Shown here piece by piece: positions 6,881-63,730 of a stretch of 64,000 nt of DNA (its first letter is position 1; every line of letters begins with the position of its first letter). Source of the DNA: Candidatus Woesebacteria bacterium (GTDB lineage: Bacteria > Patescibacteriota > Microgenomatia > UBA8517); the NCBI GenBank assembly GCA_963716475.1, contig OY970314.1, forward strand, positions 500,790 to 564,789, written 5' to 3'. The notes under the pieces were generated by a model. The model had not been told where the DNA came from and did not search any database. It saw only the letters and a list, made by a program, of their open reading frames with translations. The position numbers and the translations under genes are program-made.

Positions 6881-7531
6881 TCACACGGCGCCGACACCGC
6901 TAATCATCGCGATAGGGGTTTTAAGAATTATAATAAAGTCCATCCATAGGGATTTCTTTCTGGCATAGAGAGCATCCATTTCGATCCTTTTGTCAAAATT
7001 TATATTGCTTCTACCCGTAACTTGCCAGTGCCCAGTTATTCCGGGTTTTACCGTTTGAGTTTCTATTACAAATTTATGAGTTCCCGGATACCTTTTCTGT
7101 TGTTCTTCAATCTCATCGGCATGATACGGCCTCGGGCCAACCAGACTCATTTCTCCTTTTAAAACATTAAAAAGCTGGGGCATTTCATCGATTGAGTATT
7201 TTCTTATAAATCTTCCGAATTTTGTAACACGCGGGTCTTCGTGAAGTTTAAAACTGGACTTCTTATATTCGGTATATAGTTTTTTAAATCGAGGATCCCG
7301 GGTTAATATATAATCGGCATTGACGGCCATTGATCGGAATTTATAAAGCCTGAATATTTTCCCGTTTTTCCCAATACGCTTCATGTGTGAGTTGGTTTTT
7401 TCAACAAGCGCAGGTCCGGAGGAAGTCAGCTTTATTATAATCGCAGCAAGAAGCATTATCGGGGAAAAAAGAACAATTAAGATTACCGAGAGCGTGATAT
7501 CCATAATTCTTTTAATAAAGTCGTAAATCAT
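6881..7531 (-). CDS. polyprenyl-phosphate glycosyl-1-phosphate transferase (small monotopic Bac_transf / PglC-WbaP C-domain family); initiating enzyme
   Basis: 216 aa. Re-entrant N-terminal helix. Motifs PALVEKTN...RIGKNGKIF..YKFRSM...DE(M)PQL...GEMSLVGPRP are typical of bacterial sugar transferases. Confidence 0.85.
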   Translation of the reverse strand: MIYDFIKRIMDITLSVILIVLFSPIMLLAAIIIKLTSSGPALVEKTNSHMKRIGKNGKIFRLYKFRSMAVNADYILTRDPRFKKLYTEYKKSSFKLHEDPRVTKFGRFIRKYSIDEMPQLFNVLKGEMSLVGPRPYHADEIEEQQKRYPGTHKFVIETQTVKPGITGHWQVTGRSNINFDKRIEMDALYARKKSLWMDFIIILKTPIAMISGVGAV

Positions 7532-7541
7532 AAAGCTTTAA

Positions 7542-8741
7542 TTATAGAAGATCTGCCCTTTTCTCCTCCTTTAATCTCTCAACGATATTTTTGACGGCTT
7601 GTGCGTGGCTTTTTGAACAAACAAGGAGTGCATCTTTTGTATCAACAATAATTATATTATCCAATCCTACGACAGCAACCATTCTACCGTCAGTATGAAT
7701 AAGAGCGTCAGATGTGTCGACATTCAATACTTCTCCACCGGGTTCGTCCCCTGAGATAACAACATTGCTTTTATTGTCCTTCTTAGAATTCGCCCAAACT
7801 TCTCTCCAATCTCCGATATCTGTCCAGAAAAAGTCTCCCGCAACCACAACAAAATTATCCGCCTTCTCTGCAACCGCGTAATCGATAGAAATCGTAGGCA
7901 TCTCCTTGTACTCTTTTTCGATAATCTCACCTTGCTTTATGGTCCCGATCTGAGGCCGAATTTTTTCCAAATTCTCCCAAATTCTGGGTGCATGAACTTT
8001 AATAGCGGAAAGAATAACATCCGCCCGCCACACAAAAACCCCGGTATTCCAAAGGTATTCTCCCGAGGCCGTGTACTTTTTCGCCAGTTCTATCGGGGGC
8101 TTCTCGACAAACTTATCAAGTACGTAGAAATCGATATCTCCCTTTACGGAAATCTTCTTTCCTTTTCTTATGTGTCCCATTCCGGTGTGGGGATAGCGCG
8201 GCTCGACACCGATTGTTATTAACACCTTACTATCGTAAGCCTTCTTTGCGGCAGCTGTCAGCGTATCTAAATACCTACTGATTGGCTTAACTATCCTATC
8301 CGCTGCCTCCGTTATAATTACAGCATTGGGGTCTTTGCTCTGAATTACCAGGGCTCCCAACCCGTGGGCCGGCCCCGTTTCTCTCCTCTCGGGTTCGACA
8401 ATTACGTTCTCCCTGTGCAAACGCGGGCACTCCTTAAGCACTTCGGCCCTATATTCATTCGAAACGGTAATTATGTATATTTTCTCCCAAGGTAAAATTT
8501 CACTAAAACGCCTGACTGCCACCTGTGTTAATGTTTCGTTATCAAATAATTTCAAGAATTGCTTTGGAGTTTTTTGCCTTGATCTCGGCCAGAGTCGTGT
8601 TCCCCCGCCTCCGGCTAAAATCAAGCCGTAAATATGATTTTTATAGTCGTCCTTCTTCAACGGATTTATTTTTTCTAAAATCTCTTTAATTTTCATAACA
8701 GTTTTTAGCGTACGGAGGATGTTATTAAAACATTCTAGCAT
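7542..8741 (-). CDS. manC: mannose-1-phosphate guanylyltransferase (GDP-mannose pyrophosphorylase, ManC-like; no PMI domain)
   Basis: 399 aa. N-terminal nucleotidyltransferase motif GLILAGGGGTRLWPRSRQKTPKQF. Confidence 0.75.
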   Translation of the reverse strand: MLECFNNILRTLKTVMKIKEILEKINPLKKDDYKNHIYGLILAGGGGTRLWPRSRQKTPKQFLKLFDNETLTQVAVRRFSEILPWEKIYIITVSNEYRAEVLKECPRLHRENVIVEPERRETGPAHGLGALVIQSKDPNAVIITEAADRIVKPISRYLDTLTAAAKKAYDSKVLITIGVEPRYPHTGMGHIRKGKKISVKGDIDFYVLDKFVEKPPIELAKKYTASGEYLWNTGVFVWRADVILSAIKVHAPRIWENLEKIRPQIGTIKQGEIIEKEYKEMPTISIDYAVAEKADNFVVVAGDFFWTDIGDWREVWANSKKDNKSNVVISGDEPGGEVLNVDTSDALIHTDGRMVAVVGLDNIIIVDTKDALLVCSKSHAQAVKNIVERLKEEKRADLL

Positions 8742-9804
8742 TTTTCACGAAGTCAATAAATTCCTTCTTAAATCGCTCTTTCGAGAATCTGTCTGCGTTG
8801 GTCTTTAAAACGTTTATATCAAACTTGATCTTTTCAAACTTTTTAACGGCATCTATCAAACTTGCAGGCTTTTGTTCTTCAAAAAGTATCCCGGTTTTGT
8901 CCGGGATTACCGTATCAATCGCACCGCCTTTTTTGTAAGCGATAACCGGAACTCCAAACTTCTGTGCTTCGACTGATACGATCCCAAAATCTTCTTCCTG
9001 CGGCATAATCAAAGCTTTCGCACCGGCATAATATTTGACTAGACCCGCTTCGGAAACCTGACCCACAAATTTGATGTTACTGCCTGCCATTCGTTTTAAC
9101 TTATTCTCTTCGCGACCCGTCCCGATGATGATAAGCGGATACCCAAGTTTATTAAACGCCTTTAGTACCAAATCTACCTTCTTATAACCGACAAGTCTCG
9201 ACACTGTTAAATAATATTTTCTGTTGTTACCTTTCTTAACATTTGTCGGGGTAATATTAACAGGAGGGTAAATAACATTAGAATCTCTGACATAATAGCT
9301 CTTTATTCTATTTTTCACTTCTCTCGAAATAGAGATAATTTTATCCGGTCGGTTAGATGCCAATTTATCCCATCTTCTAAGACTATCCACAAACGGTTTT
9401 GCAATAACTTTAGATAATACTGTCCCAAAGTAGTGTTCATAATGACTCCATAAGTACCGCGTTGGGGTTAGACAATAACAAATATGCAAAGTACCCGGTT
9501 TCGTGCGGATGCCTTTGGCCGCTTCACTGGTAACAGATATCACCAGATCAAAATCAGAAAAATTAAATGATTCAAAAGCCAGTGGCATTAAAGGTGCCAA
9601 AAATTCGTGATTTGATCTGGCAAAGGGGAATTTTTGTAAAAATGACGTCACAACTGCCGGAAATACTTTTGCCCAGGGGGCGCCCCCCGGATCATATACA
9701 GAAGTATAAAGAGGGGCTTCCGGAAAAATTTCATGGAGAGCAAGAAGAACCCGTTCGGCTCCTCCCCATTTATTTACCCGGTCGTATACTATAGCAACTT
9801 GCAT
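8725..9804 (-). CDS. glycosyltransferase family 4 (GT-B, retaining)
   Basis: 359 aa. C-terminal GT4 donor-binding region (QEEDFGIVSVEAQKFGVPVIAYKKGG). Confidence 0.8.
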   Translation of the reverse strand: MQVAIVYDRVNKWGGAERVLLALHEIFPEAPLYTSVYDPGGAPWAKVFPAVVTSFLQKFPFARSNHEFLAPLMPLAFESFNFSDFDLVISVTSEAAKGIRTKPGTLHICYCLTPTRYLWSHYEHYFGTVLSKVIAKPFVDSLRRWDKLASNRPDKIISISREVKNRIKSYYVRDSNVIYPPVNITPTNVKKGNNRKYYLTVSRLVGYKKVDLVLKAFNKLGYPLIIIGTGREENKLKRMAGSNIKFVGQVSEAGLVKYYAGAKALIMPQEEDFGIVSVEAQKFGVPVIAYKKGGAIDTVIPDKTGILFEEQKPASLIDAVKKFEKIKFDINVLKTNADRFSKERFKKEFIDFVKNARMF

Positions 9805-10891
9805 ATATTCGTAGTGTTTCTTCCGCCATTTTAGCCCAGGAGTAACGTTTTACAAAATTCAGGGCTTTCTCAATTTTCCCGGAACGCGATTTTTCATCCG
9901 TCTCTATAGCTCTCTCCATGGCCTTTTCTATCGATGTAAAGTCCAAGGGATTAAAAAATATCGCGTTGTCCTGATAAATTTCTCTAAAAACCGGAATGTC
10001 CGATGCCAAAACCAGAGTTCCCGATGCCATTGCCTCAAGTCCGGGCAAACCGAAACCCTCGGAAAGGGAAGGGGAAACAAATCCAACCGAATTTTTATAC
10101 AACCCGAATAACTCTTTATCTGAAATAAAACCCAGTAATTTAGTGTAACTCCCTGCCCCATGCTCATGAATTAAACTTTCCAGTCTCCGGGTAAATATTC
10201 CCCTCGATGTTGCAATAAGTAATTTCACCGGTTGAATATATTTTTTGTTCAATAAAACCACTGCTTCCATTAATCTATTAAGATTTTTGTGGGGATAAGC
10301 GTTGCCGGCATAAATAAAGTACGGTTTCCCCGAAAAATTACTACTCATGTCAATCTCTTTGACTTCCGCTCCCAAATGCGTTACGAAAACTTTGCTTTCG
10401 GAAAGTCTGTAATATTTAACCAGTTCTTCTTTAATTGCCTGGCTGGGAGCAATGATTTTTTCGGACCGTCTTACGGCGTTGTCAAAAACCAATCTGTAAC
10501 CTAATCTTTTTAAAAAATATAAGGGAGCCGACAGGGTTGTAGCCGCCAAACCAACACTCTTATGCATAAGCATATCGTGTATTGTCACAATGTAATTACC
10601 CCGATAGAAAACAGGTGCGTTGAAATGCGGAAAGTGAACTAAATCCGGACTTTCATTATTTATTAGGTTCGGAAGTTTAAATTGCTCTGCAAAACTATAA
10701 TGGCGGAAGTCAGCTTCTATTTTTTTCCAATTTTGGGGTAATTTCAGACTGTCAAAATACTTCTTTCTGAGTAGGATTACATATTCATTACGGGAGTCTA
10801 TCTTTCCAAGTTGATCAATAAGATTAATAAGGTATCTGCCGAGACCTGCATTTTCCAAACCATATAAACGCCCGTCAATCAAAATTTTCAT
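9770..10891 (-). CDS. glycosyltransferase family 4
   Basis: 373 aa. SEGFGLPGLEAMASGTLVLASDIP is a GT4 E-x7-E-type motif. Confidence 0.8.
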   Translation of the reverse strand: MKILIDGRLYGLENAGLGRYLINLIDQLGKIDSRNEYVILLRKKYFDSLKLPQNWKKIEADFRHYSFAEQFKLPNLINNESPDLVHFPHFNAPVFYRGNYIVTIHDMLMHKSVGLAATTLSAPLYFLKRLGYRLVFDNAVRRSEKIIAPSQAIKEELVKYYRLSESKVFVTHLGAEVKEIDMSSNFSGKPYFIYAGNAYPHKNLNRLMEAVVLLNKKYIQPVKLLIATSRGIFTRRLESLIHEHGAGSYTKLLGFISDKELFGLYKNSVGFVSPSLSEGFGLPGLEAMASGTLVLASDIPVFREIYQDNAIFFNPLDFTSIEKAMERAIETDEKSRSGKIEKALNFVKRYSWAKMAEETLRIYASCYSIRPGK

Positions 10892-12087
10892 AGGGTTCCG
10901 GTTTTTTCATATATTTTGTCCAAATACTCTCCCATTTTATACCAGCTGAATTTTTCTTCGACCAATTTTCTTGCATTTTCCGCTATTCTTTTTGCAAGAT
11001 TTTCATCATCCAAAACTCCCAAAACCGCCTCGGCCATTTCCCCCGGTTCATCCCGAATAATAACCTCTTTCCCGTCGGTTGCCTCAAGTCCCTCAGCCCC
11101 GACAGAAGTCGTGACGAGAGGCAATTTTGCAGCCATTGCGGCAAGATGTTTAAGTCTGGTTCCGCCGGGTCCCCGTAAAGGAGAAACAAAAACTGAAGAT
11201 TCATAGTACGCCTTCCTTATACTCTCCTGGTCGTCTTCTTTTAAATCATCAATAATAATATTTTCGGATTTATATTCAAGAATTTCTTTGGGAACATGCT
11301 GTCCGACAATCCATACTTTAATATCGGCATTTTTTCTATGAATCAAGGGGAAAACTTCATCCAAAAGCAGTTTTGCCGCTTCAACATTCTGCAGCCATTT
11401 GAAATTTGCTATAAAAAGGATTTTCGGGTTTTGGCTGGTCCAACTATTCTTCTCTCGAAAAAAATTAAGATTTACTCCGTTAGGAACAAGATCAACTTTA
11501 AGACCTGGAACAAGTTTCAACATTTCCTTTTTATCAGATTCGGAAACGGCAACCACACGATTGGCCTTTTTCCAAAAACTGGTTTCCCAAAAGCGCAGCT
11601 TGGCCACGTCGATTGAAAGAAGCCACCTGACAAGAATATTTTTTGATCCTTCAACATAATGCTTATAAACAAGATATTCTATCGTCTGCTCAACGAGCAG
11701 TATCGGTATGTTTGTCTTGGGAATATGAGGCATTACATAAAATGTTTCTGCATGTATAAGATCGTAATGAACATGTTCTACCTCACTTACAACTGCATCC
11801 TTTTCCTCCGGTGAGAGGTTGCGTATTACCAGGAACGGATATGGCCCGAACCCCGTAAGTAAAATATTTCTTAGTGTCCATGGTGACTTCGAGCGTTTGA
11901 AGACCTGAACCTTCGAACAATATTTAGTCAACTCCGGAATAAATCTTTTTTCCGAATCATCTTTGATCAAAGAAAAGAGCGTTATCTCGTGTTTTTTACT
12001 TAAATCCTTTATTAAGTTATATGAACGGATTTGCCCACCCGAGGAATCGGGAAAAGGCAAATATGGGGTGAGCATTAATATCTTCAT
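10888..12087 (-). CDS. glycosyltransferase family 4
   Basis: 399 aa. FVSPLRGPGGTRLKHLAAMAAKLPLVTTSVGAEG is a GT4 C-domain. 4-bp overlaps on both sides. Confidence 0.8.
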   Translation of the reverse strand: MKILMLTPYLPFPDSSGGQIRSYNLIKDLSKKHEITLFSLIKDDSEKRFIPELTKYCSKVQVFKRSKSPWTLRNILLTGFGPYPFLVIRNLSPEEKDAVVSEVEHVHYDLIHAETFYVMPHIPKTNIPILLVEQTIEYLVYKHYVEGSKNILVRWLLSIDVAKLRFWETSFWKKANRVVAVSESDKKEMLKLVPGLKVDLVPNGVNLNFFREKNSWTSQNPKILFIANFKWLQNVEAAKLLLDEVFPLIHRKNADIKVWIVGQHVPKEILEYKSENIIIDDLKEDDQESIRKAYYESSVFVSPLRGPGGTRLKHLAAMAAKLPLVTTSVGAEGLEATDGKEVIIRDEPGEMAEAVLGVLDDENLAKRIAENARKLVEEKFSWYKMGEYLDKIYEKTGTL

Positions 12088-13559
12088 CTAATTGTTAATG
12101 GAGATCGGAGGTCGATAATAATATATTTATCAGTTTTTTCTATCGTCTTGAAACGTCCCTCAATCATTTTTGTGTCGGAGCTCCCCAAATCGACCGAGAC
12201 ATAATAACCCGCACCTTCCTTGATAATATTGTCTATTGAGCTATCAATGGCGGGCCAACCCCAGCGGTTTGTCGCATATAAGAAAGCCGTATCTCCGTCA
12301 TATGGGGCAACTATGAGGGTATTCTTCGGGGTAATTTTATCTATCTCCGCCCCCGCGGCAAGTATTTCCGGATGGTTGATATTGTAGTCTCCGACAATCT
12401 GATTCCATCCGGTAATAAGCATCACCACAATTGAAATAATCAAAATAACTCTTGTTAAAACCCTGTTAAACGTTTTCGTGGTCCAAAGGTAAATAGCTCC
12501 GGCTGCAAGCCCCAAAGAAATCGCAGGGATTGTAAGTATTTGGTAGTAGTCATGCATCACATTTGCATCCGCAACCAATATTACGTAAAAAAGTGCTCCT
12601 GCCAAAAACACGTGGACAAAGAAATTTTTAACCTTTGTATTTAATACTCCGAAAACAAACGGGATTAATCCCATTGAACCCAATATAAGATGTCCCAGCC
12701 TTTCACCGAATATCCAGTACCAAAAAGACGGTTTAAAACGGATATGGTTACCGTTAAATGCCCAGGTATAAAAAGGAATGCCCTGAGGAAACTTGGCTTC
12801 CCACATTCTCCAAAGGAAAAACGGCACAAATGCCAGAATAAAATAGATTGCGGTACTAATCATAACTTTCTTATCGTTTATAAACTTCTTAATACCGTAC
12901 TTTTTTAGAGCCAGATAAATTATCGGGAATATATAAAATCCCAGATACGGCTTAATCAGCATTGCCAATCCGAAGAAAATTCCGGAAATGTAAATAAGCG
13001 GTTTTTTATCCGTAATCGTAAACTCCAAAAATGCCCAGAGCGAGATCATGCCAAACATCACACCCATCGGGTCCGGCAAAATAACCCTGGTGAAATAAAT
13101 GTTAAAGGGTATAAAAAGATAAAAGAATGCACCTAGCAGCCCTCCCCATTTCCCCATTAATCTTTTTCCGATCAGGTATATAAAAAACGAAGTTATTAGT
13201 GCGCACGAAATAGTTATTAATCTTGCCCAGGTTTCTAAAGAAACGGATTTAAAGTTAACACTCAAAACTGCATTTAGGGCATTGTAAAACGGGAACTCAA
13301 CCATCCTGTAGCCCTCGGGGTTGAATATTCCTGTTTGAATACTTGAGATATCATGATACCTCGGAATCAATAGATTAATCCCCTGTTGTACATAGGTTCG
13401 GCTCACCGAGGCTGTGTCCGCCTGTCTCCATGAATGCCAATCGGCAACGGGGTTATCTATTTTATATAACCTCACTAAAAAGCCCAAAATAAGTATTATT
13501 GATAATAATATATACTCAAATAATTTCCCTTTAAAAAATTGATTAATTTTGATGTTCAT
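12084..13559 (-). CDS. polytopic GT-C-fold glycosyltransferase candidate (PMT_2/ArnT-like)
   Basis: 491 aa, at least 10 TM. The first loop reads RLYKIDNPVADWHSWRQADTASVSRTY, an acidic loop after TM1 as in GT-C enzymes. No soluble-enzyme motifs. Confidence 0.45.
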   Translation of the reverse strand: MNIKINQFFKGKLFEYILLSIILILGFLVRLYKIDNPVADWHSWRQADTASVSRTYVQQGINLLIPRYHDISSIQTGIFNPEGYRMVEFPFYNALNAVLSVNFKSVSLETWARLITISCALITSFFIYLIGKRLMGKWGGLLGAFFYLFIPFNIYFTRVILPDPMGVMFGMISLWAFLEFTITDKKPLIYISGIFFGLAMLIKPYLGFYIFPIIYLALKKYGIKKFINDKKVMISTAIYFILAFVPFFLWRMWEAKFPQGIPFYTWAFNGNHIRFKPSFWYWIFGERLGHLILGSMGLIPFVFGVLNTKVKNFFVHVFLAGALFYVILVADANVMHDYYQILTIPAISLGLAAGAIYLWTTKTFNRVLTRVILIISIVVMLITGWNQIVGDYNINHPEILAAGAEIDKITPKNTLIVAPYDGDTAFLYATNRWGWPAIDSSIDNIIKEGAGYYVSVDLGSSDTKMIEGRFKTIEKTDKYIIIDLRSPLTIR

Positions 13560-14979
13560 AATTAAGATCTCTTACCAAGAAAACGGCTAAACCAATAAGC
13601 AGCCAGAATATTGTAGCAAACTTCGACGCTTCAAAAATGTCAATAAAGACTGCATTTAATAAAGATCCAAAAAAACCTCCTATTACTCCCGCAACAAAAC
13701 CTAATTTAATACCGGTTAGCTTTTCGGTAAGCGGAAGACAAGATATGAAAACAACCACTATCCTAACTAATATAAGAATAAAGCCCAGAAAACCCAAAAT
13801 TCCGACCTCGGCCAAAAGTCTTAAATAGTCATTATCAACCGCCAGGCCGACTGAAGAGTATCCTGTACCGATAAGGGGATTCTTGAAAAATGCGCGGATT
13901 GCCCCCGGCCATTCAACATTAAGTCTGATCGAGGTCGACCTGTCTTCAAGAACAGGAATTGGTGTACTTACGGGTGGCGCCGTTTCCTTTAAGGCCGGAA
14001 TAGTCAGCTCTTGCGCTGAAATTTTAAAATTGGAAAAGTTTGTTTCTACAATCTTAACATTTTTGATTTTTTGAAAGTAAACGTCAATTAAGCTTTTATA
14101 CCTTGCAAAAAGACTTGTTGAAAACCCGCTCAAAACCAAACTGATAATCACAACTGCGATCATTGCCTTATATTTCTTGACTAAGAATAGGGAAATACAT
14201 ATTGCTGCCAGATATGATACTAAAGAAATTCTCGAGGCTGTATTTACCAACAACCAATAACCGGAAAGAGAAACTATAGACAAAAGTATTTTGGCTAGTT
14301 TGCCCTTAACTACAAAAATAAGAGTTATCAGAATAGGCAAAATCAAAACCATATACGAGGCAAGATCATAATGGCCGGCAAACGTTGAGGTTAACTGACT
14401 ACCCGGAATCCAACTTAAGGCAATTCCCTTTGAGGATTCCGAATTCTGAGTCACGATTACCGGAAAATTGAGATATTTTTGTCCCACACCGTATAGGAAG
14501 GCTACAAATACGGTAATTATCAGAATCTTAACGTAAAACTCCAAGTTTTTGTCCTTCTCGTAGGGAAAAAAAGCCAGAACGGCGAAGAACGGAATAAAGT
14601 ACTCCACACGCCTGAGAAGGTGCAAAACCCCAATACTGGGAACTACTGTTTGCGTCAAAAACACGCCGGCAAGTACCGACACCGATCCGATAAGAAGAAA
14701 AACAAGCATTGCCCGGGTTATTTGGTCATCAAATACTTTCTTAAGGCTGGGAATAATTTTGATAAAAGTAAATATCGCGGTAATAGCTAACAAAAAATCC
14801 TCAAATCTTATAGAAACATACGTTCCCGGGACTTGAATGAGAGGAAATTTCGGGTAAAGAGGCACAATAATAATTAGCGCGGCTACCAGATACTTAAAAA
14901 ATTTATTTAACGGTTCAATAAGTTTATGCATTTTTATAATCGAAAGATCCATTTTGATGTTTTCACCGTTTTTACCCAC
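13543..14979 (-). CDS. O-antigen ligase / polymerase family membrane protein (Wzy_C-type)
   Basis: 478 aa, polytopic. Wzy_C-like region GTGYSSVGLAVDNDYLRLLAEVGILGFLGFILIL. An alternative start (MHKLIEP) would reduce the 46-bp overlap with the downstream gene. Confidence 0.6.
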   Translation of the reverse strand: MGKNGENIKMDLSIIKMHKLIEPLNKFFKYLVAALIIIVPLYPKFPLIQVPGTYVSIRFEDFLLAITAIFTFIKIIPSLKKVFDDQITRAMLVFLLIGSVSVLAGVFLTQTVVPSIGVLHLLRRVEYFIPFFAVLAFFPYEKDKNLEFYVKILIITVFVAFLYGVGQKYLNFPVIVTQNSESSKGIALSWIPGSQLTSTFAGHYDLASYMVLILPILITLIFVVKGKLAKILLSIVSLSGYWLLVNTASRISLVSYLAAICISLFLVKKYKAMIAVVIISLVLSGFSTSLFARYKSLIDVYFQKIKNVKIVETNFSNFKISAQELTIPALKETAPPVSTPIPVLEDRSTSIRLNVEWPGAIRAFFKNPLIGTGYSSVGLAVDNDYLRLLAEVGILGFLGFILILVRIVVVFISCLPLTEKLTGIKLGFVAGVIGGFFGSLLNAVFIDIFEASKFATIFWLLIGLAVFLVRDLNYEHQN

Positions 14980-26807: not shown

Positions 26808-26819
26808 ACCGTTATTTTA

Positions 26820-28376: not shown

Positions 28377-28469
28377 CGTGATAATATTATCAGTTTTTAT
28401 TCTAGAGTATCATATCAAACTAAACAAATATTGAAACGGTAATCTTATGTATAATAAATAACAATTTCA

Positions 28470-33241: not shown

Positions 33242-33242
33242 A

Positions 33243-40201: not shown

Positions 40202-40359
40202 TTCTAATTTCCCTAATTACGCAAATTCATTGTATTTACGAATCTCACAAACACAACGTTACTGTACTCAGGACCAATCGGCCTCATCGCTAAATTCGGT
40301 CAAGCCAATCCTCGCAATCTAAACCATTTCAAGTATAATAGGCCGTAAACCTAAACTAA

Positions 40360-43261: not shown

Positions 43262-44895
<1,634 letters not shown>

Positions 44896-56094: not shown

Positions 56095-57656
56095 TAGTCA
56101 AAAGTACTCCTCGCGGTTACCAGGAAAAATGCATCCGACCCATTGGGATATTTTACAGCGTAAACGGTTTCAAATAAAAGCTGGTATTTTAAACCAGTGT
56201 AAACCGACGGCGTAACCACATATAAAACATGCGGAATCGGTTGACTATCAATAGGGTCCCAAAGGCCAAAATGATACTTTGAATATCCGGCTACGGTATT
56301 TGCCGGTCTTGATTGGGTTTCGTTATATTTAACAGTCTTCAAATATAAGGACAGAGGAGTTTTAAGATAAAAAAGATAGAAAATGTAAGGCTGCTGCCTT
56401 TCCGGAGTCATGTAGACCTCATCGTATTCCGGATGGGCTTTCACAAACTCAACGACCTGTTTCATTCCGTATTGCCATTCAATTGCATACCTTTTGGTGT
56501 AAACACCAAAATAATTTCGTATATAACCGAATAACGAAACTCCCAGAATGCCGGTTATTAATAGACCCACCGCAACTTTTATGTATCTGTTCTTAAACAT
56601 TTTTATTATCGTAAACACACCTAGGGCCGCAATAAGATGCCAACTTCCCGTCATAAACATTGCCCGGGCGGCGTGAGGTGCTTCGCTTGTTACACTCGCA
56701 GGTATCGGGGCCAGAAGAGCCCATGCTAAAACAATCAAATATTCTTTTTTACCTCTGAATATTCCCCAAATCAGGGCAATAACTCCTATTATTAAAAAAA
56801 CAATATCAACCTTGTAAAAAGTACCTGTTTGACCGGAAAGTCTGGGGTTACTGTCCCCTTGTACAAAGAGAAAGTTATATGAAAAATGCTCTAAATATTT
56901 TTTGGTGATAGCCTGGATGTTTCTTTCCTGAGGAGAAGATGTCTGCTTGAATCTTGCCCCACCGAGGAGAGCCGGCTCCACAAAAAATAAACTGACGAAA
57001 ATAAAAAATGCCAAAAGCCCCGCAAAAAAATATTTTTTATCCTTCAGAAGGTCCTTAAAATAGATAATAGTTATCAAAAGGAGTAGCGGGGGAACCAGCA
57101 CGGTTGCACTTTGATACGCAAGCAGGTCAAGACCCAAAGAAGCGAACCCCAATACTATTAAATAGTTCCTTTTTTCAAGACCTTTTAATATAAGGTAAAA
57201 ACCCAGCATGAAGAAAAAAATCGCGAAATTCAGTTCATGATTAAATCGTGAAAAGTGTATGTTATATGGCGAAATCGTTAATATTAACGAGGCTATAAGC
57301 CCTGCCCAACTGCTATCAAAGATCTTCTTACCCAGAAAAAAGATTATTGCTACGTTAAGGACTCCGAACAGTGCGGAGGAAGCTCTAACTCCTAATTCGT
57401 TAAGACCGAAAACCGCAATCGTCGGTACGGTTAAATAAATATGAACGGGGTGCTTATCATCTTCAAATGATTTAAAAATCAGGGGTAGTGTTTTACCCCA
57501 TTCGTCTTTTCCCCAATGTAAGATTGTCCAGGCATTATAACCGACAGCTGTCTCATCCCAACTTATAGAAGGAGGGGCACTGCTCAATTTATAGAAACGT
57601 AAAATCGCAGCCAAAATTAAAATAGCTGCAAAGATAATTAAGGTTAACTTTTTCAC
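56094..57656 (-). CDS. PMT_2/ArnT-like GT-C glycosyltransferase (paralog 3; tandem copy 4 of 4)
   Basis: 520 aa. SISWDETAVGYNAWTILHWGKDEWGKTLPLIFKSF; IHFSRFNHELNF. Confidence 0.65.
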   Translation of the reverse strand: MKKLTLIIFAAILILAAILRFYKLSSAPPSISWDETAVGYNAWTILHWGKDEWGKTLPLIFKSFEDDKHPVHIYLTVPTIAVFGLNELGVRASSALFGVLNVAIIFFLGKKIFDSSWAGLIASLILTISPYNIHFSRFNHELNFAIFFFMLGFYLILKGLEKRNYLIVLGFASLGLDLLAYQSATVLVPPLLLLITIIYFKDLLKDKKYFFAGLLAFFIFVSLFFVEPALLGGARFKQTSSPQERNIQAITKKYLEHFSYNFLFVQGDSNPRLSGQTGTFYKVDIVFLIIGVIALIWGIFRGKKEYLIVLAWALLAPIPASVTSEAPHAARAMFMTGSWHLIAALGVFTIIKMFKNRYIKVAVGLLITGILGVSLFGYIRNYFGVYTKRYAIEWQYGMKQVVEFVKAHPEYDEVYMTPERQQPYIFYLFYLKTPLSLYLKTVKYNETQSRPANTVAGYSKYHFGLWDPIDSQPIPHVLYVVTPSVYTGLKYQLLFETVYAVKYPNGSDAFFLVTARSTFD

Positions 57657-59074
57657 TTAAATTGAAATCCGTTGAATGACGCTACCTTTGAAAATCCCCA
57701 ATCGCTAACCGGGTTTAGCTTCACCTCTTCCCTGAATTTTTCCGGAGGATATTTCAGGTAATAGAGAGCAAAGATATAAGGCTGAGCATACTTATCGGAA
57801 ACCACACCGCTTTTTTGATTCGCAAAAATTTCCTTATATTGATACTGCCAATCAGAAGCGGTCTCGGAAGAATATTTTGTCAAAAAATCAACCATGTACG
57901 ATTCGAAAGACAAGTAGTAAGCCGCAATTACAACCAAAAGGATAACTGTACTAAATTTTTTGATATTTTCTCTTAAGAACATGACACCCAGAGCTGACAT
58001 TATGGCAAGTGAAGGAGCCGCAAGGAGTGCTCTTAACGCATGGGGTGATTCTTTGGTCAAGGCTGCGGGAATCGGAGCAATCAGAAGCGTTGCCAAAGGC
58101 AAAAAGTATAATATTTTTTTACTTTTAATAATTGCGAGTAAGCCTAAAAGTATCAGGGGAGCTTCAAATAAATAAAGCTCACCGTGTCCCGGAATTTGAC
58201 TGCGGGGATTGGTATCACCTTTGAAAAATAAAAATTGGGGGTCAAAATGGGAAAAATAGTTTTTAACAAAATCCAGCTTACTCGTAATTTGCACTTCAGC
58301 AAACCTCGCCCCACCCGAATCGTATTTATAAAGTCTATAAACCGGAATTAAGCTTAATAAGAATAATGTTATAGAAATGATAAGAACAACCGGATACTTG
58401 CGGTCTCTGATAAACTCGCGAAACTTGTAGACAAAAAGTAAAACCATCCAAATAGGAACAATTATCCGGAATGAGTTGTAACTGTAAAAAGATAAAATAA
58501 AACTTAATGTTGCAGCCAATAAATAATATTTGTTTTTGGGGAGAAGCAGAAACAAATACGTAGCGAGTAAAAAGAAAAATAGGCCCGCGGTGGCTTCATA
58601 TCCGGTTCTTGAAAATATAAAAAACCACGGAGAAAAACTTAGAATAAAGCTTGCCAGGATCGCAATACTCTCTTTGCCGGTTATTTTCTTGGTTAATAAA
58701 TAGACAACAATCAAAGTTCCCAACGAATACAAAACTGCCGGAAGTCTGACGGCATATTCATTTAAGCCTATTGTCTTAACAAATATGGCTACTGAATAAA
58801 TGTAGACCGGAAGCTTAAATTCGCCGAAGGCGCGAAAATGCAGAGGAAGTGTCACTCCCCATTCATCTTTCAGGTCGGTCGCAATCGAATAAGCATTATA
58901 TCCTATCGAGGCCTCATCCCAATAAACGGATTGCGGTATTTCTGCAATTTTATATATTCGGGTAGCAAGAAAAAGAACCAATACAAAGGCGAAGATTATT
59001 TTTCGTTTAATGAACGCATTATTTCGCATTTTTTTCAACAATATCAAATGCCCTATTACCGTTAAGGAAATCAA
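57653..59074 (-). CDS. PMT_2/ArnT-like GT-C glycosyltransferase (paralog 4; tandem copy 3 of 4)
   Basis: 473 aa. SVYWDEASIGYNAYSIATDLKDEWGVTLPLHFRAF; FIFSRTGYEATAG. The start is probably the internal MRNNAF..., which reduces the overlap with the upstream paralog. Confidence 0.65.
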   Translation of the reverse strand: MISLTVIGHLILLKKMRNNAFIKRKIIFAFVLVLFLATRIYKIAEIPQSVYWDEASIGYNAYSIATDLKDEWGVTLPLHFRAFGEFKLPVYIYSVAIFVKTIGLNEYAVRLPAVLYSLGTLIVVYLLTKKITGKESIAILASFILSFSPWFFIFSRTGYEATAGLFFFLLATYLFLLLPKNKYYLLAATLSFILSFYSYNSFRIIVPIWMVLLFVYKFREFIRDRKYPVVLIISITLFLLSLIPVYRLYKYDSGGARFAEVQITSKLDFVKNYFSHFDPQFLFFKGDTNPRSQIPGHGELYLFEAPLILLGLLAIIKSKKILYFLPLATLLIAPIPAALTKESPHALRALLAAPSLAIMSALGVMFLRENIKKFSTVILLVVIAAYYLSFESYMVDFLTKYSSETASDWQYQYKEIFANQKSGVVSDKYAQPYIFALYYLKYPPEKFREEVKLNPVSDWGFSKVASFNGFQFK

Positions 59075-60677
59075 CAGTCAAAAGTCTTGGTAAATTATCA
59101 GGGAAGTCGCCGGATTTTCCTATAAACAACATTTTCTTCCCGGGATTTGCATTAACAATGTCTTGATAGTGAGTTCCGGTATCACCAAGGTCCGGAAAAT
59201 AAAACTTATCAAACTTGAGAACCCAAATCCATTGATTGGCCTCAAAACGGTCAAGGTTCGGGTCATTCTGATACTTTGCCGGGTCCCAGTTCAAGAAAAA
59301 AAGAGTAAACATGTGAGGCTCTCCGTAAGTCCGGCTGAAAACTATCAGGTCATAGTTGTTATAGTGCTCTTTTATATAACCTACTGCTTGCTTATAACCA
59401 TATTGCCAATCGCGTGAATATAGAACAGGATAAATATTGTAATAATTATTTAAATATCCTTTGAAACTGAAGGCTAGTGCAATTACTGACGCAGTCATTA
59501 CTACCCAACGGATAATATTCTTCCGGCTTAGCAACTTAAATGTCTTGTAAATACCAAGAGCGGTAAATATTTGATACGGAATTGCCGCCAATAGTGTTCT
59601 TAGTGCGTTAGGAATACTGTCAACCGTTGCCGATACAGGAATAAATGCCAAAAGTAACCATGTTACGAGTAGCCACCTCCATTTATTTTTGTTCCTAAAA
59701 AGAAAGAAAAGACCGATTAAAATAAACGGTGCCTGAATTGCATACATTTCCCCAATCCCTTGAACGTGTTGTTGCTTATGCCCCGCGCCATTTATAAAAA
59801 GGAAGTCGGGAGTAAAATGACTAAGGTAATTCCCCACGAATACATAAACATAATGTGTTACTTTATTGTGAATAAGACGGGGTAGCGGTTCAGGAAGACG
59901 TGTATTACCACGCGCTTCATTTATCCGAAGCGTAAATCCCGGATCATCTGTAATACTTACCAGATTAAACCTGGCTGTTGCCTCCCCGCTTATTACAAAG
60001 CTTGCAAGTGGGATCATCGACAACAAAAAAACCAGTAGGCTAAGAATAAATATTCTGGTATTTTTCAAAATATCTTTTTTATAAATTAGGAAAAGGGCTA
60101 GTACAAATAGTGGAGTAAAAACCCGTGCGGCATTATAAGTATAAATTGAAATAATAAAAGGTATTGTCGAGGCTAACCAATATTTTTTGTTTGTAAATCC
60201 CTTGATAAAAAGCCACACCCCAAGGGTAACCCAGAAAACCGAAAATGAGGATTCAAAAGATACCCTAGTCAGCTGAATATGCCAGGGGGAAATTGCAAGA
60301 AAAAATGAGGAGGTTAGAGCAATCCACTCGTTTTGAAAAATTTCCTTGGCCAAGAAATAAAGAAGTAACACCGTCAATGTTCCGTAAATGACAGGAGTAA
60401 TCCTTACTCCGAGCTCGTTAAGACCGAACATTGCAATTCCCGGAATCGAAGCATATATCTGCGCCGGAAGTTTATACTCACCGTAAGATTTAAAATGAAC
60501 AGGCAAAAGCTGCCCCCACTCGTCTCGGCCGGTTTTGAGAACGGAGTAGGCGTTGTAGCCGATTGATACCTCGTCCCAGTTGAGTGATGGCGGATCAGAA
60601 GTAACCCTATATAGCCTCAGGAATAAAGCCAGCGCGACAACCAAGAAAAGAACAATCCTGGATAAATTACGCTTCAT
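59019..60677 (-). CDS. PMT_2/ArnT-like GT-C glycosyltransferase (paralog 5; tandem copy 2 of 4)
   Basis: 552 aa. SLNWDEVSIGYNAYSVLKTGRDEWGQLLPVHFKSY; IQLTRVSFESSFS. Confidence 0.65.
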   Translation of the reverse strand: MKRNLSRIVLFLVVALALFLRLYRVTSDPPSLNWDEVSIGYNAYSVLKTGRDEWGQLLPVHFKSYGEYKLPAQIYASIPGIAMFGLNELGVRITPVIYGTLTVLLLYFLAKEIFQNEWIALTSSFFLAISPWHIQLTRVSFESSFSVFWVTLGVWLFIKGFTNKKYWLASTIPFIISIYTYNAARVFTPLFVLALFLIYKKDILKNTRIFILSLLVFLLSMIPLASFVISGEATARFNLVSITDDPGFTLRINEARGNTRLPEPLPRLIHNKVTHYVYVFVGNYLSHFTPDFLFINGAGHKQQHVQGIGEMYAIQAPFILIGLFFLFRNKNKWRWLLVTWLLLAFIPVSATVDSIPNALRTLLAAIPYQIFTALGIYKTFKLLSRKNIIRWVVMTASVIALAFSFKGYLNNYYNIYPVLYSRDWQYGYKQAVGYIKEHYNNYDLIVFSRTYGEPHMFTLFFLNWDPAKYQNDPNLDRFEANQWIWVLKFDKFYFPDLGDTGTHYQDIVNANPGKKMLFIGKSGDFPDNLPRLLTVDFLNGNRAFDIVEKNAK

Positions 60678-60704: not shown

Positions 60705-62327
60705 TTACTTGCACACTATTTTTGTGGAATAACCAAAAAGAATGGGTTTCCCCAAGTAATCGGGAACCGTAAACTCTTCATGGAGTTTGTGTGTAATAAT
60801 CTGTAGCGAAGAAACGGATAGCTCGTCCCCGACTATAATCAGGTTTGGTCCACACACTTTAGTCCAATCCAGCGGCTTGAAGATGATATTACCGATCCTG
60901 TAAATTTCTTGAGCATTTACATCCCGACTATAGTAATTTGTTGTCAACTGAGCTTTCAGATTAGCCTGAACCAGCCTTGGATCAACTGATTTAAGATAGG
61001 TCATTCTGATACCCACCCCCCAGGCACGGGCATTGAAATCAACAACGATTTGCCTGTCTTTGTATTTATCCAAAACAGGCATCAATTCTACATAGGGCTC
61101 TCCGGAAGCTATCACTAGTTCATATTTAAGAATGACAAAGTACGATATCCCAAAAAGAATTAATGAGTAGCCGACTATTCCCAAGACGGCCAATAGCTTC
61201 AGCCATTTATTTTTTATCGCCCCCAGTACCACCCAGCACCCCAGCGAAACAATAAAAGCGACAACCCAAAGATAATCAAGAGTCCTTAGCGGATAAAAAA
61301 GATCCCCGGTTAGCGCGGCAGGGATGGGCGCGATTAAAAGTAAAGCTAGTATAATTTTTAAAAAATTGTTTTGCCTATTTTTAAACAGATAACCAAGGCC
61401 TATCAGAAAGGGAATAGCCATCCAGGGATAATAAACTCCCATGTCGGGCGCAGTTCTTCCAAGACTGCTACCCGGATCAAAAAATAGGTTTTTTGGTGAA
61501 ATGTAGATTAGATAATGATTACTAAATTGTTTAGCGGCTTCCAGAATTTTTCCTCCAAAATTTATTTTCTCTTCAAAAATATTCCCAAAATATGTTACTT
61601 GGCTTAATCTTTTCGTTAAAGCTCCTGTTGTCAATAAATACAAGTGCGGCAAAAGGATTAATACAAAAATTCCTAAGCCCAGTGCTGTGGTTTTTTTTGT
61701 TTTCAGGAAAATTTTTCGATAGATTAAAACAACGAATGCCAAAAGTAGCACCGATGTTACCCTTTCAGAATAATAAGCATGAGTAGAAAGTCCCAAAACC
61801 AGACAGGCTAAAGGAAACAGTGAAATCTTTTTCAAGGAACTGGCCAGTAAATATACACCGGCCATAAAGATAAGGACTCCTACGTTGGCCTCAACCGCCA
61901 CCCTGCTAAAGAGAATGGCCCAGGGAGAGATTGCGACAATTCCGGAAGTAATTAAACCAAGTGTAACTCCGTCTTTTTTACTTCCGAGGAAGAGCCTGCT
62001 TACAAAAAAATAGGTTAATAAAACCAATCCCACACCGGATACCGCCGAAACTACTTTGACCGTAAAAATACTATCACCCAAAAAAACTGTCGGGATTATT
62101 GTCAGATAAGTATAAATTGGCGGTTGATACGAACCGTTTGCTCTAAAAAGTATGGGAAAACTTTTTCCATACATATCTTTACCTGTTTTCAGGATCGAGA
62201 AAGCGTTAAATCCCTGAGAAGCTTCGTCTGCGTGTAACCCGGGAGGAACTGTATCCAATTCATAAAATCTTAAAATAACAGCTATAAAAACAATTATTAT
62301 TAATATTATTTTTTGAAATTTATTCAT
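60705..62327 (-). CDS. PMT_2/ArnT-like GT-C glycosyltransferase (paralog 6; tandem copy 1 of 4)
   Basis: 540 aa. GLHADEASQGFNAFSILKTGKDMYGKSFPILFRAN; ILFSRVAVEANVG. Confidence 0.65.
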   Translation of the reverse strand: MNKFQKIILIIIVFIAVILRFYELDTVPPGLHADEASQGFNAFSILKTGKDMYGKSFPILFRANGSYQPPIYTYLTIIPTVFLGDSIFTVKVVSAVSGVGLVLLTYFFVSRLFLGSKKDGVTLGLITSGIVAISPWAILFSRVAVEANVGVLIFMAGVYLLASSLKKISLFPLACLVLGLSTHAYYSERVTSVLLLAFVVLIYRKIFLKTKKTTALGLGIFVLILLPHLYLLTTGALTKRLSQVTYFGNIFEEKINFGGKILEAAKQFSNHYLIYISPKNLFFDPGSSLGRTAPDMGVYYPWMAIPFLIGLGYLFKNRQNNFLKIILALLLIAPIPAALTGDLFYPLRTLDYLWVVAFIVSLGCWVVLGAIKNKWLKLLAVLGIVGYSLILFGISYFVILKYELVIASGEPYVELMPVLDKYKDRQIVVDFNARAWGVGIRMTYLKSVDPRLVQANLKAQLTTNYYSRDVNAQEIYRIGNIIFKPLDWTKVCGPNLIIVGDELSVSSLQIITHKLHEEFTVPDYLGKPILFGYSTKIVCK

Positions 62328-62333
62328 CTTGTT

Positions 62334-62978
62334 TTAATTTTTGAAGAGTCTTCCTATATTTTTTACGCCCATTAATAATCCTAAATTGATTAATGGAATA
62401 AATAGCCAATAAGCCACATCGGGAGGAACCAGAATGGCCCCCACAGTCGCCAAACTAAGATAATATAAGGTTGGTTTTATTTTTTCAGAAAGCATAACCA
62501 AAAATCCCAAGGTAAAAAGGGGAAATAATATCAATGAATAAAATGAATAATTCTCAGATGAAAAATAATGAGATATTTCATACGGTTCCGTAATTTTTTG
62601 ATTTACCTTGTCAATAATCAGTTTCGTCTGTTCAATAAATTTATTTCCGAAGTTGTTTCTCCCGATGAAGCCCAGTTCTCTTCTGTAAAGTTCTTCCCTT
62701 TCCCACAATATGTTTTTCTCAAAGTTTGTAATCTTAAAAGTATCCTTATATATGCCGCTCCCGATAATAAATATACCGACAAAAATCGGTAAGGCTAATA
62801 ATATAATTATTCTTAGTAGATAATTGTGAGACTTTTCCGCGATTACAAAATATAGCAGGGTACTTTGGAAAAAAGTAAAAACTACCAGCCATATGGTTGG
62901 TGAAGATCCGGGTTTAAAAAAAACAACAATTAATGCCAAAAATAGTAACGACAGGGTTGTACTTCTTTTGAAAATCAT
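62334..62978 (-). CDS. membrane protein (hypothetical)
   Basis: 214 aa, about 6 TM. 4-bp overlap with the upstream GT2 gene. Confidence 0.4.
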   Translation of the reverse strand: MIFKRSTTLSLLFLALIVVFFKPGSSPTIWLVVFTFFQSTLLYFVIAEKSHNYLLRIIILLALPIFVGIFIIGSGIYKDTFKITNFEKNILWEREELYRRELGFIGRNNFGNKFIEQTKLIIDKVNQKITEPYEISHYFSSENYSFYSLILFPLFTLGFLVMLSEKIKPTLYYLSLATVGAILVPPDVAYWLFIPLINLGLLMGVKNIGRLFKN

Positions 62979-63730
62979 TTTGCTACTTTAGGGTTAAATC
63001 TCCTGTCATTAATAATACCTGCTTTATAAAGTAAATACATTCCTGTCGTTCCGAATCCTTCCAGTATAAACTTAGCACCTTTAAGAAATCTTATCGAGGA
63101 AGCTTTATCGTGATATCTTGTGGGGATGGCAATCTCGCCAATCCTAAATCCGTAACTTATTGAAGAAGTAGTCATTTCCTGATCGAAAACGAAGTCGTTG
63201 GAAAACCTCTGAAAAGGGACTATTCTTAACAATTTACTCGAATATGCCCTGAAACCGGAAAAATATTCGCTGAAATTTTCACCCAAAAGAATGTTTTGCA
63301 TAAGACACACAAGACGGTTTACATAATATTTTATCTTTGGCATACCGCCCGCAAGCGCAGACCCCCTGTTCTTAATCCGACTACCAAACATAAAGTCAAA
63401 ATTACCAGCTAAAATCGGCACGATCAGATGATCAATCTTTGAAGCATCATACTGATAATCCGGATGTAACATTACAACAACGTCGGGATTCAATTTTAAC
63501 GCCTCCCAATAACATGTTTTTTGATTCCCCCCGTAACCTAAATTGTTTGGGTGTTCAAATACCGTAATCCCTAATTTCCTCGCAACCGCTATCGTATCAT
63601 CTGTGCTGTGGTCATCGACTAAAATTATATTCTTACGGTATTTTAAAGGAACCTCCGAGTAAGTATCTTTAACGGTTTTTGCAGCATTATACGCCGGCAT
63701 TACTATTACAATTTTTGGAGTTTTTTTCAT
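62975..63730 (-). CDS. GT2 glycosyltransferase (DPM1/GtrB-like)
   Basis: 251 aa. IVIVMPAYNAAKTV...ILVDDHSTDDT...MLHPDYQYD...SGFRAYSSK. Confidence 0.75.
   Translation of the reverse strand: MKKTPKIVIVMPAYNAAKTVKDTYSEVPLKYRKNIILVDDHSTDDTIAVARKLGITVFEHPNNLGYGGNQKTCYWEALKLNPDVVVMLHPDYQYDASKIDHLIVPILAGNFDFMFGSRIKNRGSALAGGMPKIKYYVNRLVCLMQNILLGENFSEYFSGFRAYSSKLLRIVPFQRFSNDFVFDQEMTTSSISYGFRIGEIAIPTRYHDKASSIRFLKGAKFILEGFGTTGMYLLYKAGIINDRRFNPKVAK

Follow-up and report, generated by a model that had tools for sequence, protein, structure and literature searches.

A contiguous glycan-assembly region of at least 59 kb with an embedded hypervariable cassette in a Woesebacteria-like bacterium of the Candidate Phyla Radiation

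The Wzx/Wzy loci for O-antigens, capsules and exopolysaccharides (EPS) bring together an initiating transferase of the Bac_transf family, glycosyltransferases (GTs) of the GT4 and GT2 families, a Wzx flippase, a Wzy_C protein, a nucleotide-sugar enzyme and an acetyltransferase, and a low-GC, strongly variable gene set lies between conserved genes. Wzx proteins ordinarily vary with the repeat unit. In other systems, small proteins of the GacJ/Rv3632 type stimulate the synthesis of polyprenyl-monophosphate-linked sugars, and a GT-C membrane transferase then transfers the sugar outside the membrane (bioRxiv 10.1101/180810). Here, we describe a region in which all of the listed features of Wzx/Wzy loci recur, located in a stretch of 64,000 nucleotides (the window) of contig OY970314.1 from the Candidatus Woesebacteria assembly GCA_963716475.1. 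This region probably acts as the main factory for cell-envelope glycans in a Microgenomates/Woesebacteria-like bacterium of the Candidate Phyla Radiation (CPR), made of a Wzx/Wzy-type core, units leading from GT2 to GT-C enzymes, and a variable cassette.

Open reading frames (ORFs) of at least 100 aa were listed for the window and 60 of them were scanned against Pfam, with an extra pass at relaxed thresholds, and 30 against NCBIfam; paralogy was assessed by all-versus-all BLASTP and transmembrane (TM) helices were counted by a simple hydropathy method. The glycan region extends from 4,841 to the end of the window (64,000) and holds 53 genes at a coding density of 98%. By Pfam, NCBIfam or BLASTP, 45 of them are placed in glycan-assembly families, namely one Bac_transf initiating transferase, one Wzx, one Wzy_C protein, nine GT4 (one frameshifted), nine GT2 (62975–63730 included), 14 GT-C-type membrane proteins, three nucleotide-sugar enzymes (ManC, DegT and an Fcl-like short-chain dehydrogenase/reductase, SDR), four methyltransferases (one truncated), one hexapeptide acetyltransferase and two accessory proteins (DUF4012 and DUF2304). 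Five polytopic membrane proteins and three small proteins among the 53 are unassigned. Such a run of consecutive glycan genes at this density is far beyond chance. The initial annotation had seen essentially nothing but glycan biosynthesis from 6.9 kb onwards, and most ORFs between 6,881 and 63,730 do belong to glycan-assembly families; its starting point at 6,881 has to be moved, since the cluster begins with the DUF4012 gene at 4,841, a boundary set there because DUF4012 always adjoins the initiating transferase. Its estimates of at least eight GT4, about nine GT2 and at least 11 GT-C enzymes agree with the present counts (13 of the 14 GT-Cs were found by Pfam and one by paralogy), and with the family assignments in place, its description of an unusually long, dense and contiguous glycan region, against the 15–25 kb of typical loci, holds. 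The region accounts for about 6% of its 982,852-bp contig, at a length of at least 59 kb, and runs past the right edge of the window, where one more gene crosses the end; no family was found for the 60-aa fragment at this end (63822–64000). An independent assembly, Logan ERR12035932 (16,874 bp), reproduces window positions 25,044–41,917 at 99.98%, and thus the central junctions, including both edges of the cassette, are real. A tRNA scan and an Rfam search of the window gave no tRNA and no Rfam match and, therefore, no RNA features or integration sites.

The region divides into a conserved core (block A, 4.8–28.4 kb), a hypervariable cassette (28.4–40.2 kb) and a second block (block B, 40.3–63.7 kb). 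A gene-order comparison had been proposed to separate a conserved from a strain-specific cluster, and the outcome is both: a backbone conserved in Microgenomates and a single hypervariable, low-GC cassette. Among GTDB genomes, ManC has its relatives in Patescibacteria, for the most part Candidatus Woesebacteria along with other Microgenomates, and all named sources of the top DUF2079 and DUF4012 homologues are Patescibacteria/Microgenomates, again mostly Woesebacteria. The gene order RecO, DUF4012, phosphoglycosyl transferase, ManC, three GT4, GT-C, Wzy_C, 174-aa protein, acetyltransferase and GT4 is found whole, or almost whole, in about 10 of 11 related GTDB genomes, at 37–78% protein identity, and in a further genome, GCA_964645605.1, the order of block A runs unbroken to Wzx. 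The order of block B is kept at 52–84% identity in GCA_040961665.1 and GCA_029980365.1, whose block B loci are referred to as L013 and L014 (relatives' loci are labelled L004–L027). On a 771,642-bp contig of GCA_040961665.1, the Wzx locus (333,843–355,123) and block B (376,524–397,957) have the order and orientation of the window, which makes the supercluster layout a property of the lineage; the distance from Wzx to DUF2079 is about 42 kb in that genome versus 20 kb in the window. The left flank of the region is made of housekeeping genes (RecO, a Zn/Mn-type ABC transporter, an RNase H-like exonuclease and a cupin) and is syntenic in relatives as well. Four loci titled “uncultured Gammaproteobacteria bacterium” (L004, L007, L008 and L009) share the Woesebacteria-type synteny of RecO, DUF4012, phosphoglycosyl transferase, ManC and GT4, and their titles are probably wrong.

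All genes of block A are on the minus strand, with the exception of one GT-C (17261–18958, plus strand). Next to DUF4012 lies the initiating enzyme, a small polyprenyl-phosphate phosphoglycosyl transferase of 216 aa (6881–7531; Bac_transf 207 bits, cut-off 27), which is PglC-sized, in line with the PglC-like label it had been given, and aligns with the C-terminal catalytic part of the WbaP, WcaJ and EPS sugar transferase models of NCBIfam. It is followed by the mannose-1-phosphate guanylyltransferase ManC (7542–8741), with NTP_transferase and ManC beta-helix domains but without the phosphomannose isomerase domain (positions 2–352 of 467 in TIGR01479), and by three tandem GT4 (8725–9804, 9770–10891 and 10888–12087; Glycos_transf_1/Glyco_trans_1_4) that are syntenic in relatives. 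Further along are a GT-C (12084–13559; PMT_2 65.5 bits, 8 TM helices, hhalign 97% against the paralog profile), the Wzy_C-domain protein (13543–14979; PF04932 42.4 bits versus a cut-off of 31.7, 10 TM helices), for which a search of the PDB by sequence gave no relative, and a conserved 174-aa membrane protein (14934–15458) that has no Pfam or NCBIfam match and syntenic homologues at 37–50% identity. A WcaF-like hexapeptide O-acetyltransferase (15455–16051; Hexapep, NF007797 WcaF at 97 bits, under its cut-off) and a GT4 (16056–17180; Glycos_transf_1 124 bits) complete the set shared by most relatives. The Wzx-type flippase of the multidrug/oligosaccharidyl-lipid/polysaccharide (MOP) superfamily (25521–26807; Polysacc_synt 88 bits, Polysacc_synt_3 53 bits, 11 TM helices) shows 69–86% identity to the 119 non-self clusters in the list of its 120 best matches, which suggests a conserved substrate. 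The flippase, the Wzy/WaaL-like protein, ManC and the acetyltransferase had all been recognized correctly in the initial annotation.

The Wzx is more conserved than most of its neighboring genes, which is unusual for a Wzx. One of its homologues is annotated as MurJ (PF03023) and JGI calls some of them SpoVB; the idea of a lipid II flippase, raised by the strong conservation, was rejected, as NCBIfam gave only weak similarity to SpoVB, MOP and TuaB, and the Wzx assignment was retained. In locus L015, an asparagine synthase gene (AsnB, 11263–13131) lies beside Wzx. The remaining genes of block A are the GT-C of the plus strand (17261–18958), assigned by PMT_2, paralogy and its motif to a family of six paralogs described below and having no homologue at the same position in L015; a GT4 with 60–81% identity in relatives (18937–19995); a GtrC-type GT-C of the DUF6056 family, now GT_STM0557_N (20016–21422; PF19528 74.8 bits, 9 TM helices); a GT2 (21482–22318; Glycos_transf_2 111 bits); a GT4 with two frameshifts (22345–23248); a GT-C with a PMT_2 match of 23.1 bits, under the cut-off (23245–24666; hhalign 89% against the paralog profile over 302 columns), whose L019 orthologue carries PMT_2; a divergent GT2 (24608–25558; Glycos_transf_2 32 bits), whose orthologues carry PF00535; and the GT-C that forms the left anchor of the cassette (26820–28376; PMT_2 30.5 bits, 50 metagenome relatives). 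In the frameshifted GT4, the shifts lie near 22,930 and at about 22,455, the latter consistent with an extra A in “CCCAACCAACACC”. Its orthologues are whole in L015 (357 aa) and L019 (312 aa), the intact L015 protein aligns across three frames, and the gene is either decaying (a pseudogene) or affected by sequence errors.

The DUF4012 protein (4841–6862) is membrane-anchored. Its model (predicted local distance difference test, pLDDT, 72) has a disordered N-terminus (residues 1–50), one TM helix and a long helical-hairpin bundle (51–266), followed by mixed alpha/beta and beta-sandwich domains; cysteines C411 and C413 are invariant. A structure search with this model returned generic helical-hairpin matches only, with no informative neighbor. 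To the left of the region, two small proteins on the minus strand at 251–1551 (162 aa with one TM helix and 271 aa with four) have no family match and are syntenic in relatives at 34–41% identity.

The cassette (28470–40201, about 12 kb) is set apart by its base composition, with a GC of 0.29–0.33 overall and a gene GC of 0.29–0.37 versus about 0.36–0.45 outside. It begins with a 202-aa protein with a very weak methyltransferase match (28470–29078) and an FkbM methyltransferase (29075–29809), both on the plus strand, and continues with a GT2 (29802–30575), a GT4 (30602–31717), two methyltransferases (31704–32540 and 32537–33241), a DegT aminotransferase (33243–34355), a small cupin-like protein (34352–34759), a second GT4 (34774–35946) and a PMT_2 GT-C (36007–37371). 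A membrane protein without a family (37368–38513), for which hhalign against GT-C profiles gave no assignment, and a LIC_10190/DUF8201 membrane protein (38510–40201) close it; the family assignments in the cassette come from Pfam and NCBIfam. The 19 metagenome loci analyzed, each at least 14 kb long, conserve the homologue of the left-anchor GT-C (26820–28376), Wzx (present in all 19) and the genes downstream, and their 10 kb upstream of the anchor show scattered matches of 25–47% to the cassette of the window, or none. L015 and L019 carry other genes at this position, where L019 falls to a GC of 0.30, and in L027, a homologue of the right anchor (71% identical) lies about 9 kb from the left anchor. 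With its low GC, conserved flanking genes and a content that differs in every relative examined, the cassette is O-antigen-like. No convincing direct or inverted repeats were seen at its edges and no integrase or transposase domain was found by the Pfam scans of its ORFs. The DegT assignment of the initial annotation stands, its FdtA is not supported: for 34352–34759, Pfam at relaxed thresholds and NCBIfam found no FdtA-family domain, and only weak cupin similarity was obtained (Cupin_2 E 0.04, WbuC E 0.002). Four of its six methyltransferases are clear; what is left is only the N-terminus of the GT2 at 40360–41460 and the very weak match of 28470–29078. The methylated deoxy-amino sugars deduced from these genes are not sustained either, the sole basis being DegT and methyltransferases located in a variable cassette, with no FdtA and an uncertain Fcl.

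On the right side of the cassette, block B is largely on the minus strand, and genes on the plus strand are marked here by (+). Its right-anchor gene (40360–41460, +) encodes a GT2 with a methyltransferase-like N-terminal remnant, and the whole protein is 67–71% identical in L013, L014 and L027, so the odd fusion is conserved; the N-terminal residues (about 100 aa) match only the C-terminal part of Methyltransf_23 (positions 86–162). Further along, a GT2 of the polyprenyl-phosphate-sugar-synthase-like PpgS/GacI/AglJ type (43262–43951; PpgS 96 bits versus a cut-off of 370, AglJ 78 bits, also under its cut-off) is followed 4 bp downstream by a DUF2304/GacJ-like protein of 111 aa (42922–43257; PF10066 62.5 bits, 3 TM helices), an adjacency that is kept in L013 and L014. 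Two GT-Cs share the co-directional block with this pair, a PIG-V-like protein (44907–46067; Mannosyl_trans2, PF04188 57 bits, 8 TM helices) and the DUF2079 protein (46064–47545; PF09852 134.6 bits). A second GT2, PgfS/CsbB-like (51015–51746; 100 bits, PgfS as best NCBIfam match), lies 22 bp from the divergently transcribed YfhO GT-C (51769–54117, +; PF09586 112.9 bits). A third, dolichyl/polyprenyl-phosphate-sugar-synthase-like and close to AglJ (62975–63730; AglJ 74 bits, PpgS 55 bits, both under cut-off), is 25% identical to GT2 43262–43951 by BLASTP and heads an array of four tandem PMT/PMT_2 paralogs (56094–57656, 57653–59074, 59019–60677 and 60705–62327; 23–36% mutual identity); tandem PMT arrays are also present in L013 and L014.

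The assignment of the GT-Cs rests on several lines of evidence. Pfam matches were obtained for 13 of the 14 (PMT_2/PMT, DUF6056, Mannosyl_trans2, DUF2079 or YfhO), and 7–11 TM helices were counted in 13 of the 14 and five in 23245–24666, by a method that undercounts (8–13 are expected for the class). Six paralogs have an invariant D35-E36 (WDE..GYNA) directly after TM1, in the first loop, and the profile built from them finds ArnT (5EZM, E 1.2e-4), the closest solved structure by sequence. The three array members 56094–57656, 57653–59074 and 59019–60677 reach 26–37 bits with PF02366 (PMT; cut-off 22.7), and Pfam reported PMT_4TMC and MIR domains for no paralog. One GT-C, the DUF2079 protein, was modelled with AlphaFold2 (pLDDT 89, predicted TM-score 0.88), and the top 18 Foldseek matches of the model in the PDB are all GT-C enzymes (STT3, PglB, AftA, ArnT, ALG9, GPI-MT-I, EmbC and ALG6; TM-score 0.54 for ArnT, E 3.6e-5 for STT3). 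The GT-Cs would use a polyprenyl-phosphate-linked sugar donor, and their number, fourteen, implies many distinct linkages.

The other genes of block B can be described briefly. A methyltransferase without its N-terminus (41450–41980) has 176 aa versus 219–225 aa in relatives, and its match begins at profile position 23. In L013 and L014 a gene of 481–483 aa, absent from the window, stands between this methyltransferase and the next GT2 (42128–42922; Glycos_transf_2 98.8 bits), so that the interval 41450–42128 looks like a deletion that clipped the methyltransferase. Upstream of the DUF2304 pair, an extended SDR resembling GDP-L-fucose synthase (43927–44865; Epimerase 178 bits) is 80–84% identical in relatives. 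It had been named Fcl; with 284 bits versus a cut-off of 500 for NF047922 and no Gmd in the window, this name is uncertain and the set of a GDP-L-fucose pathway (ManC-Gmd-Fcl) is incomplete. Beyond a GT4 (47535–48569), the segment 48620–55236 (6.6 kb) corresponds to a single SDR in L013 and L014 (GT2-SDR-GT4). In the window, its first gene (48620–49348, +) encodes a membrane protein of 242 aa with four TM helices and no family match. About 100 of the residues align in hhalign (94.8% probability) with the middle TM section of the GT-C paralogs, and the gene may be what remains of a GT-C gene or a piece split off from one; it shares 4 nt with the start of the GT-C paralog that follows (49345–51003, +). 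This paralog has no Pfam match and is 37% identical to 60705–62327. After YfhO come a 7-TM protein with no family (54130–55236; only 54% probability by hhalign against GT-C profiles) and a GT2 with 71–77% identity in L013 and L014 (55249–56094), and a 5-TM protein without Pfam or NCBIfam match or hhalign assignment against GT-C profiles lies between the last GT2 and the GT-C array (62334–62978). Genes of an AbiEii and PemK toxin-antitoxin are inserted in block B of L014 (17480–21249).

These assignments can be joined in a scheme, in which substrates, order of steps, acceptor and final polymer are as we infer them. The small phosphoglycosyl transferase would prime polyprenyl phosphate, ManC would supply GDP-mannose, and the cytoplasmic GT4 and GT2 enzymes would extend a mannose-containing oligosaccharide on polyprenyl diphosphate, to be modified by the acetyltransferase. 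Wzx would then flip the lipid-linked oligosaccharide across the membrane, outside of which the Wzy_C protein would polymerize it or pass it to an acceptor, with DUF4012 as a putative accessory. In parallel, GT2 synthases may charge a lipid carrier with a single sugar, which the GT-Cs may then attach to the glycan, or to proteins, outside the membrane; there would be three such synthase units, one with the GacJ-like DUF2304 partner, one beside YfhO and one heading the tandem PMT-like array. The cassette, exchanged between lineages, might decorate the outside in a variable, serotype-like way, in which an amino sugar and methylation could take part. The several glycoconjugates proposed in the initial annotation survive in part: more than one product is probable, and the different evolutionary behavior of the blocks fits several products or decoration steps, while the specific sugar chemistry proposed is not supported.

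Several observations weigh against the reading of the region as one Wzx/Wzy-based envelope glycan factory. No Wzz/polysaccharide co-polymerase (PCP) was found in the Pfam scans of the window ORFs (DUF4012 fills the position beside the priming enzyme), and no LytR-CpsA-Psr (LCP) ligase is present within the window. The Wzy_C domain is common to polymerases, WaaL ligases and O-oligosaccharyltransferases, and 13543–14979 could be any of these. Every GT2 “synthase” assignment scores under the curated NCBIfam cut-off, and neither a GtrA-type flippase nor a second MOP protein was detected by the Pfam scans, the sole Wzx being about 16 kb away from the DUF2304 pair. The missing Wzz/PCP, GtrA-type flippase, Gmd, FdtA and PMT_4TMC, together with these low GT2 scores, are the reason why the parts of the region are filed at superfamily level only. 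With one GT4 frameshifted and one methyltransferase truncated, the pathway may be partly in decay in this strain, and the contiguity of the 21 kb between the Wzx locus and block B in GCA_040961665.1 is read from coordinates only. As for the ligase, an LCP gene may sit just off the left end of the window, judging from the relative L018, where the flank past RecO, the ABC transporter, the RNase H-like exonuclease and the cupin carries a PDDEXK nuclease, a LytR_cpsA_psr (LCP) ligase (17267–18316), HisRS, MraZ and RsmH, the ligase gene lying a few kb out.

Among the other explanations, the one with most in its favor, still rather unlikely in our view, is that the region serves mainly general O-glycosylation of S-layer proteins, pilins or other surface proteins. 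Here, the Wzy_C protein would act as an O-oligosaccharyltransferase of the PglL/PilO/WsaB type, and the PMT-like GT-Cs as protein O-mannosyltransferases fed by polyprenyl-phosphate-mannose synthases. The Wzy_C domain, shared by these enzymes and ligases, would allow this, GDP-mannose would come from ManC, and three tandem GT-Cs score above the PF02366 cut-off and have the PMT-typical Asp-Glu of loop 1, but no PMT_4TMC or MIR domain accompanies it on any paralog. Likewise, PgfS is the best NCBIfam match of the GT2 next to YfhO and the C-terminus of YfhO resembles Streptococcus mutans PgfM1/PgfM2, yet these similarities are far under the curated cut-offs. The absence of Wzz and of an LCP ligase from the window counts in its favor, and pilin glycosylation has been proposed, still as a hypothesis, for Saccharibacteria (PMC11623550); however, a candidate acceptor protein is encoded nowhere in the region, and DUF4012 is found beside the priming enzyme in a capsule/EPS locus too (PMC5412050). 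This explanation is compatible with an envelope glycan factory, the two not being exclusive.

It is improbable, in turn, that there is no functional supercluster and that several unrelated glycan loci are simply neighbors in a genome that is small and dense in genes. The blocks do evolve differently, are parted by strand switches and by the variable cassette, and tolerate unrelated insertions in relatives (AsnB in L015, AbiEii/PemK in L014) as well as different spacings between Wzx and DUF2079 (20 versus 42 kb). Against this, the same left-to-right order is found across genomes at only 45–85% protein identity, the anchors of the core and block B in L027 are again about 9 kb apart, and the blocks, which have only a single Wzx and a single initiating transferase between them, are probably interdependent. 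Most improbable of all is an origin of the entire 57 kb by horizontal transfer, as a genomic island or a mobile element. Only the interval 28.4–40.3 kb, clearly lower in GC and different between relatives, has such a character; elsewhere, the GC equals that of the flanking housekeeping genes, the Pfam scans of the region ORFs gave no integrase or transposase, no tRNA and no flanking repeats were found, the chromosomal context (RecO, ABC transporter, RNase H-like exonuclease, cupin) is the same in relatives, and the graded identities among relatives suggest that the core genes follow the species tree. On the grounds of GC and synteny, transfer of the whole region was rejected.

Going beyond the reading as a main envelope glycan factory, and with somewhat less than even confidence, we propose that Microgenomates carry a lineage-wide “glyco-island” of about 60–80 kb, in which an expanded set of at least 14 GT-Cs builds a complex envelope glycan or a coat of glycoproteins outside the membrane, as mycobacteria do, with a hypervariable serotype-like cassette embedded at a fixed site. 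If true, ultrasmall and probably episymbiotic bacteria spend about 6% of a genome of about 1 Mb on a surface glycan that would be under diversifying selection from phages or host partners, and DUF4012, already noted as CPR-enriched, would be a core accessory of the glycan machinery. The cell surfaces of CPR/Patescibacteria are thought to mediate attachment to host cells, and to our knowledge, their glycobiology is almost unstudied. A study on Saccharibacteria calls glycosylation there “unexplored” (PMC11623550), and full-text searches turned up no account of an expansion of GT-Cs, or of glycan superclusters, in CPR. Every component comes from an established family and no known principle is overturned, but the combination of a conserved region of at least about 60 kb, 14 GT-Cs and a hypervariable cassette at a fixed position, in a CPR genome with a longest contig of about 1 Mb, appears undescribed. 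The locus offers a concrete conserved gene set for testing, a fixed chromosomal site for surveying surface-glycan diversity in metagenomes, candidate roles for the CPR-enriched DUF4012, DUF2079, DUF8201/LIC_10190 and the 174-aa membrane protein, and a natural set of divergent GT-Cs for structural and enzymological study. It is useful as a way into the surface glycobiology of CPR and holds no surprise in principle.

In the EPS locus of Bifidobacterium longum 105-A (cpsD-DUF4012-wzz), DUF4012 likewise lies directly beside the priming enzyme, and Meheust et al. listed DUF4012 among the envelope families common to CPR and Gram-positives. Unlike Wzx/Wzy loci in general, the region has no Wzz/PCP, tyrosine kinase or outer-membrane export parts, is two to four times longer, interleaves 14 GT-Cs and has a conserved instead of a serotype-specific Wzx, and it is found in a CPR bacterium, on a contig of about 1 Mb, which makes its size notable. 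From the GacI/GacJ/GacK/GacL system of the Streptococcus pyogenes group A carbohydrate and PpgS/Rv3632/Rv3779 of Mycobacterium tuberculosis, it repeats the succession of a GT2 with PpgS as best match and a 111-aa, 3-TM DUF2304 protein, in one operon with GT-Cs (PIG-V-like and DUF2079) and in an order conserved in relatives; however, its GT2 is under the PpgS cut-off, there are two GT-Cs instead of one, and the operon has no dedicated flippase. With GtrA/GtrB/GtrC, CsbB/GtcA/YfhO and PgfS/PgfM1/PgfE/PgfM2 of S. mutans, it shares the close GT2-YfhO pair, a GtrC-type (DUF6056/GT_STM0557_N) protein, and an array from 62975 down to 56094 of GT2, small membrane protein and GT-Cs that mimics gtrB-gtrA-gtrC, while no GtrA/GtcA protein was detected and many GT-Cs are present per synthase. 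The mycobacterial arabinogalactan and lipoarabinomannan machinery (EmbA/B/C, AftA-D, PimE) also combines many GT-C paralogs with polyprenyl-phosphate-sugar synthases, in a host that, as here, is probably monoderm, and the DUF2079 model matches the AftA and EmbC (and ArnT) structures; there is, in contrast, no orthology at the sequence level, arabinose and galactofuranose pathway genes are absent, and GT-Cs are more densely packed in the CPR bacterium, relative to kb as well as to the genome. ArnT (GT83) and the protein O-mannosyltransferases (GT39) have the same PMT_2/PMT N-terminal domain with an invariant Asp-Glu after TM1, but in the region this occurs without PMT_4TMC or MIR and without a lipid A context, in paralogs only 21–36% identical to each other. 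By analogy with these systems, the region would work like a Wzx/Wzy locus fused to several three-component decoration systems of the Gtr, CsbB-YfhO and GacIJL type.

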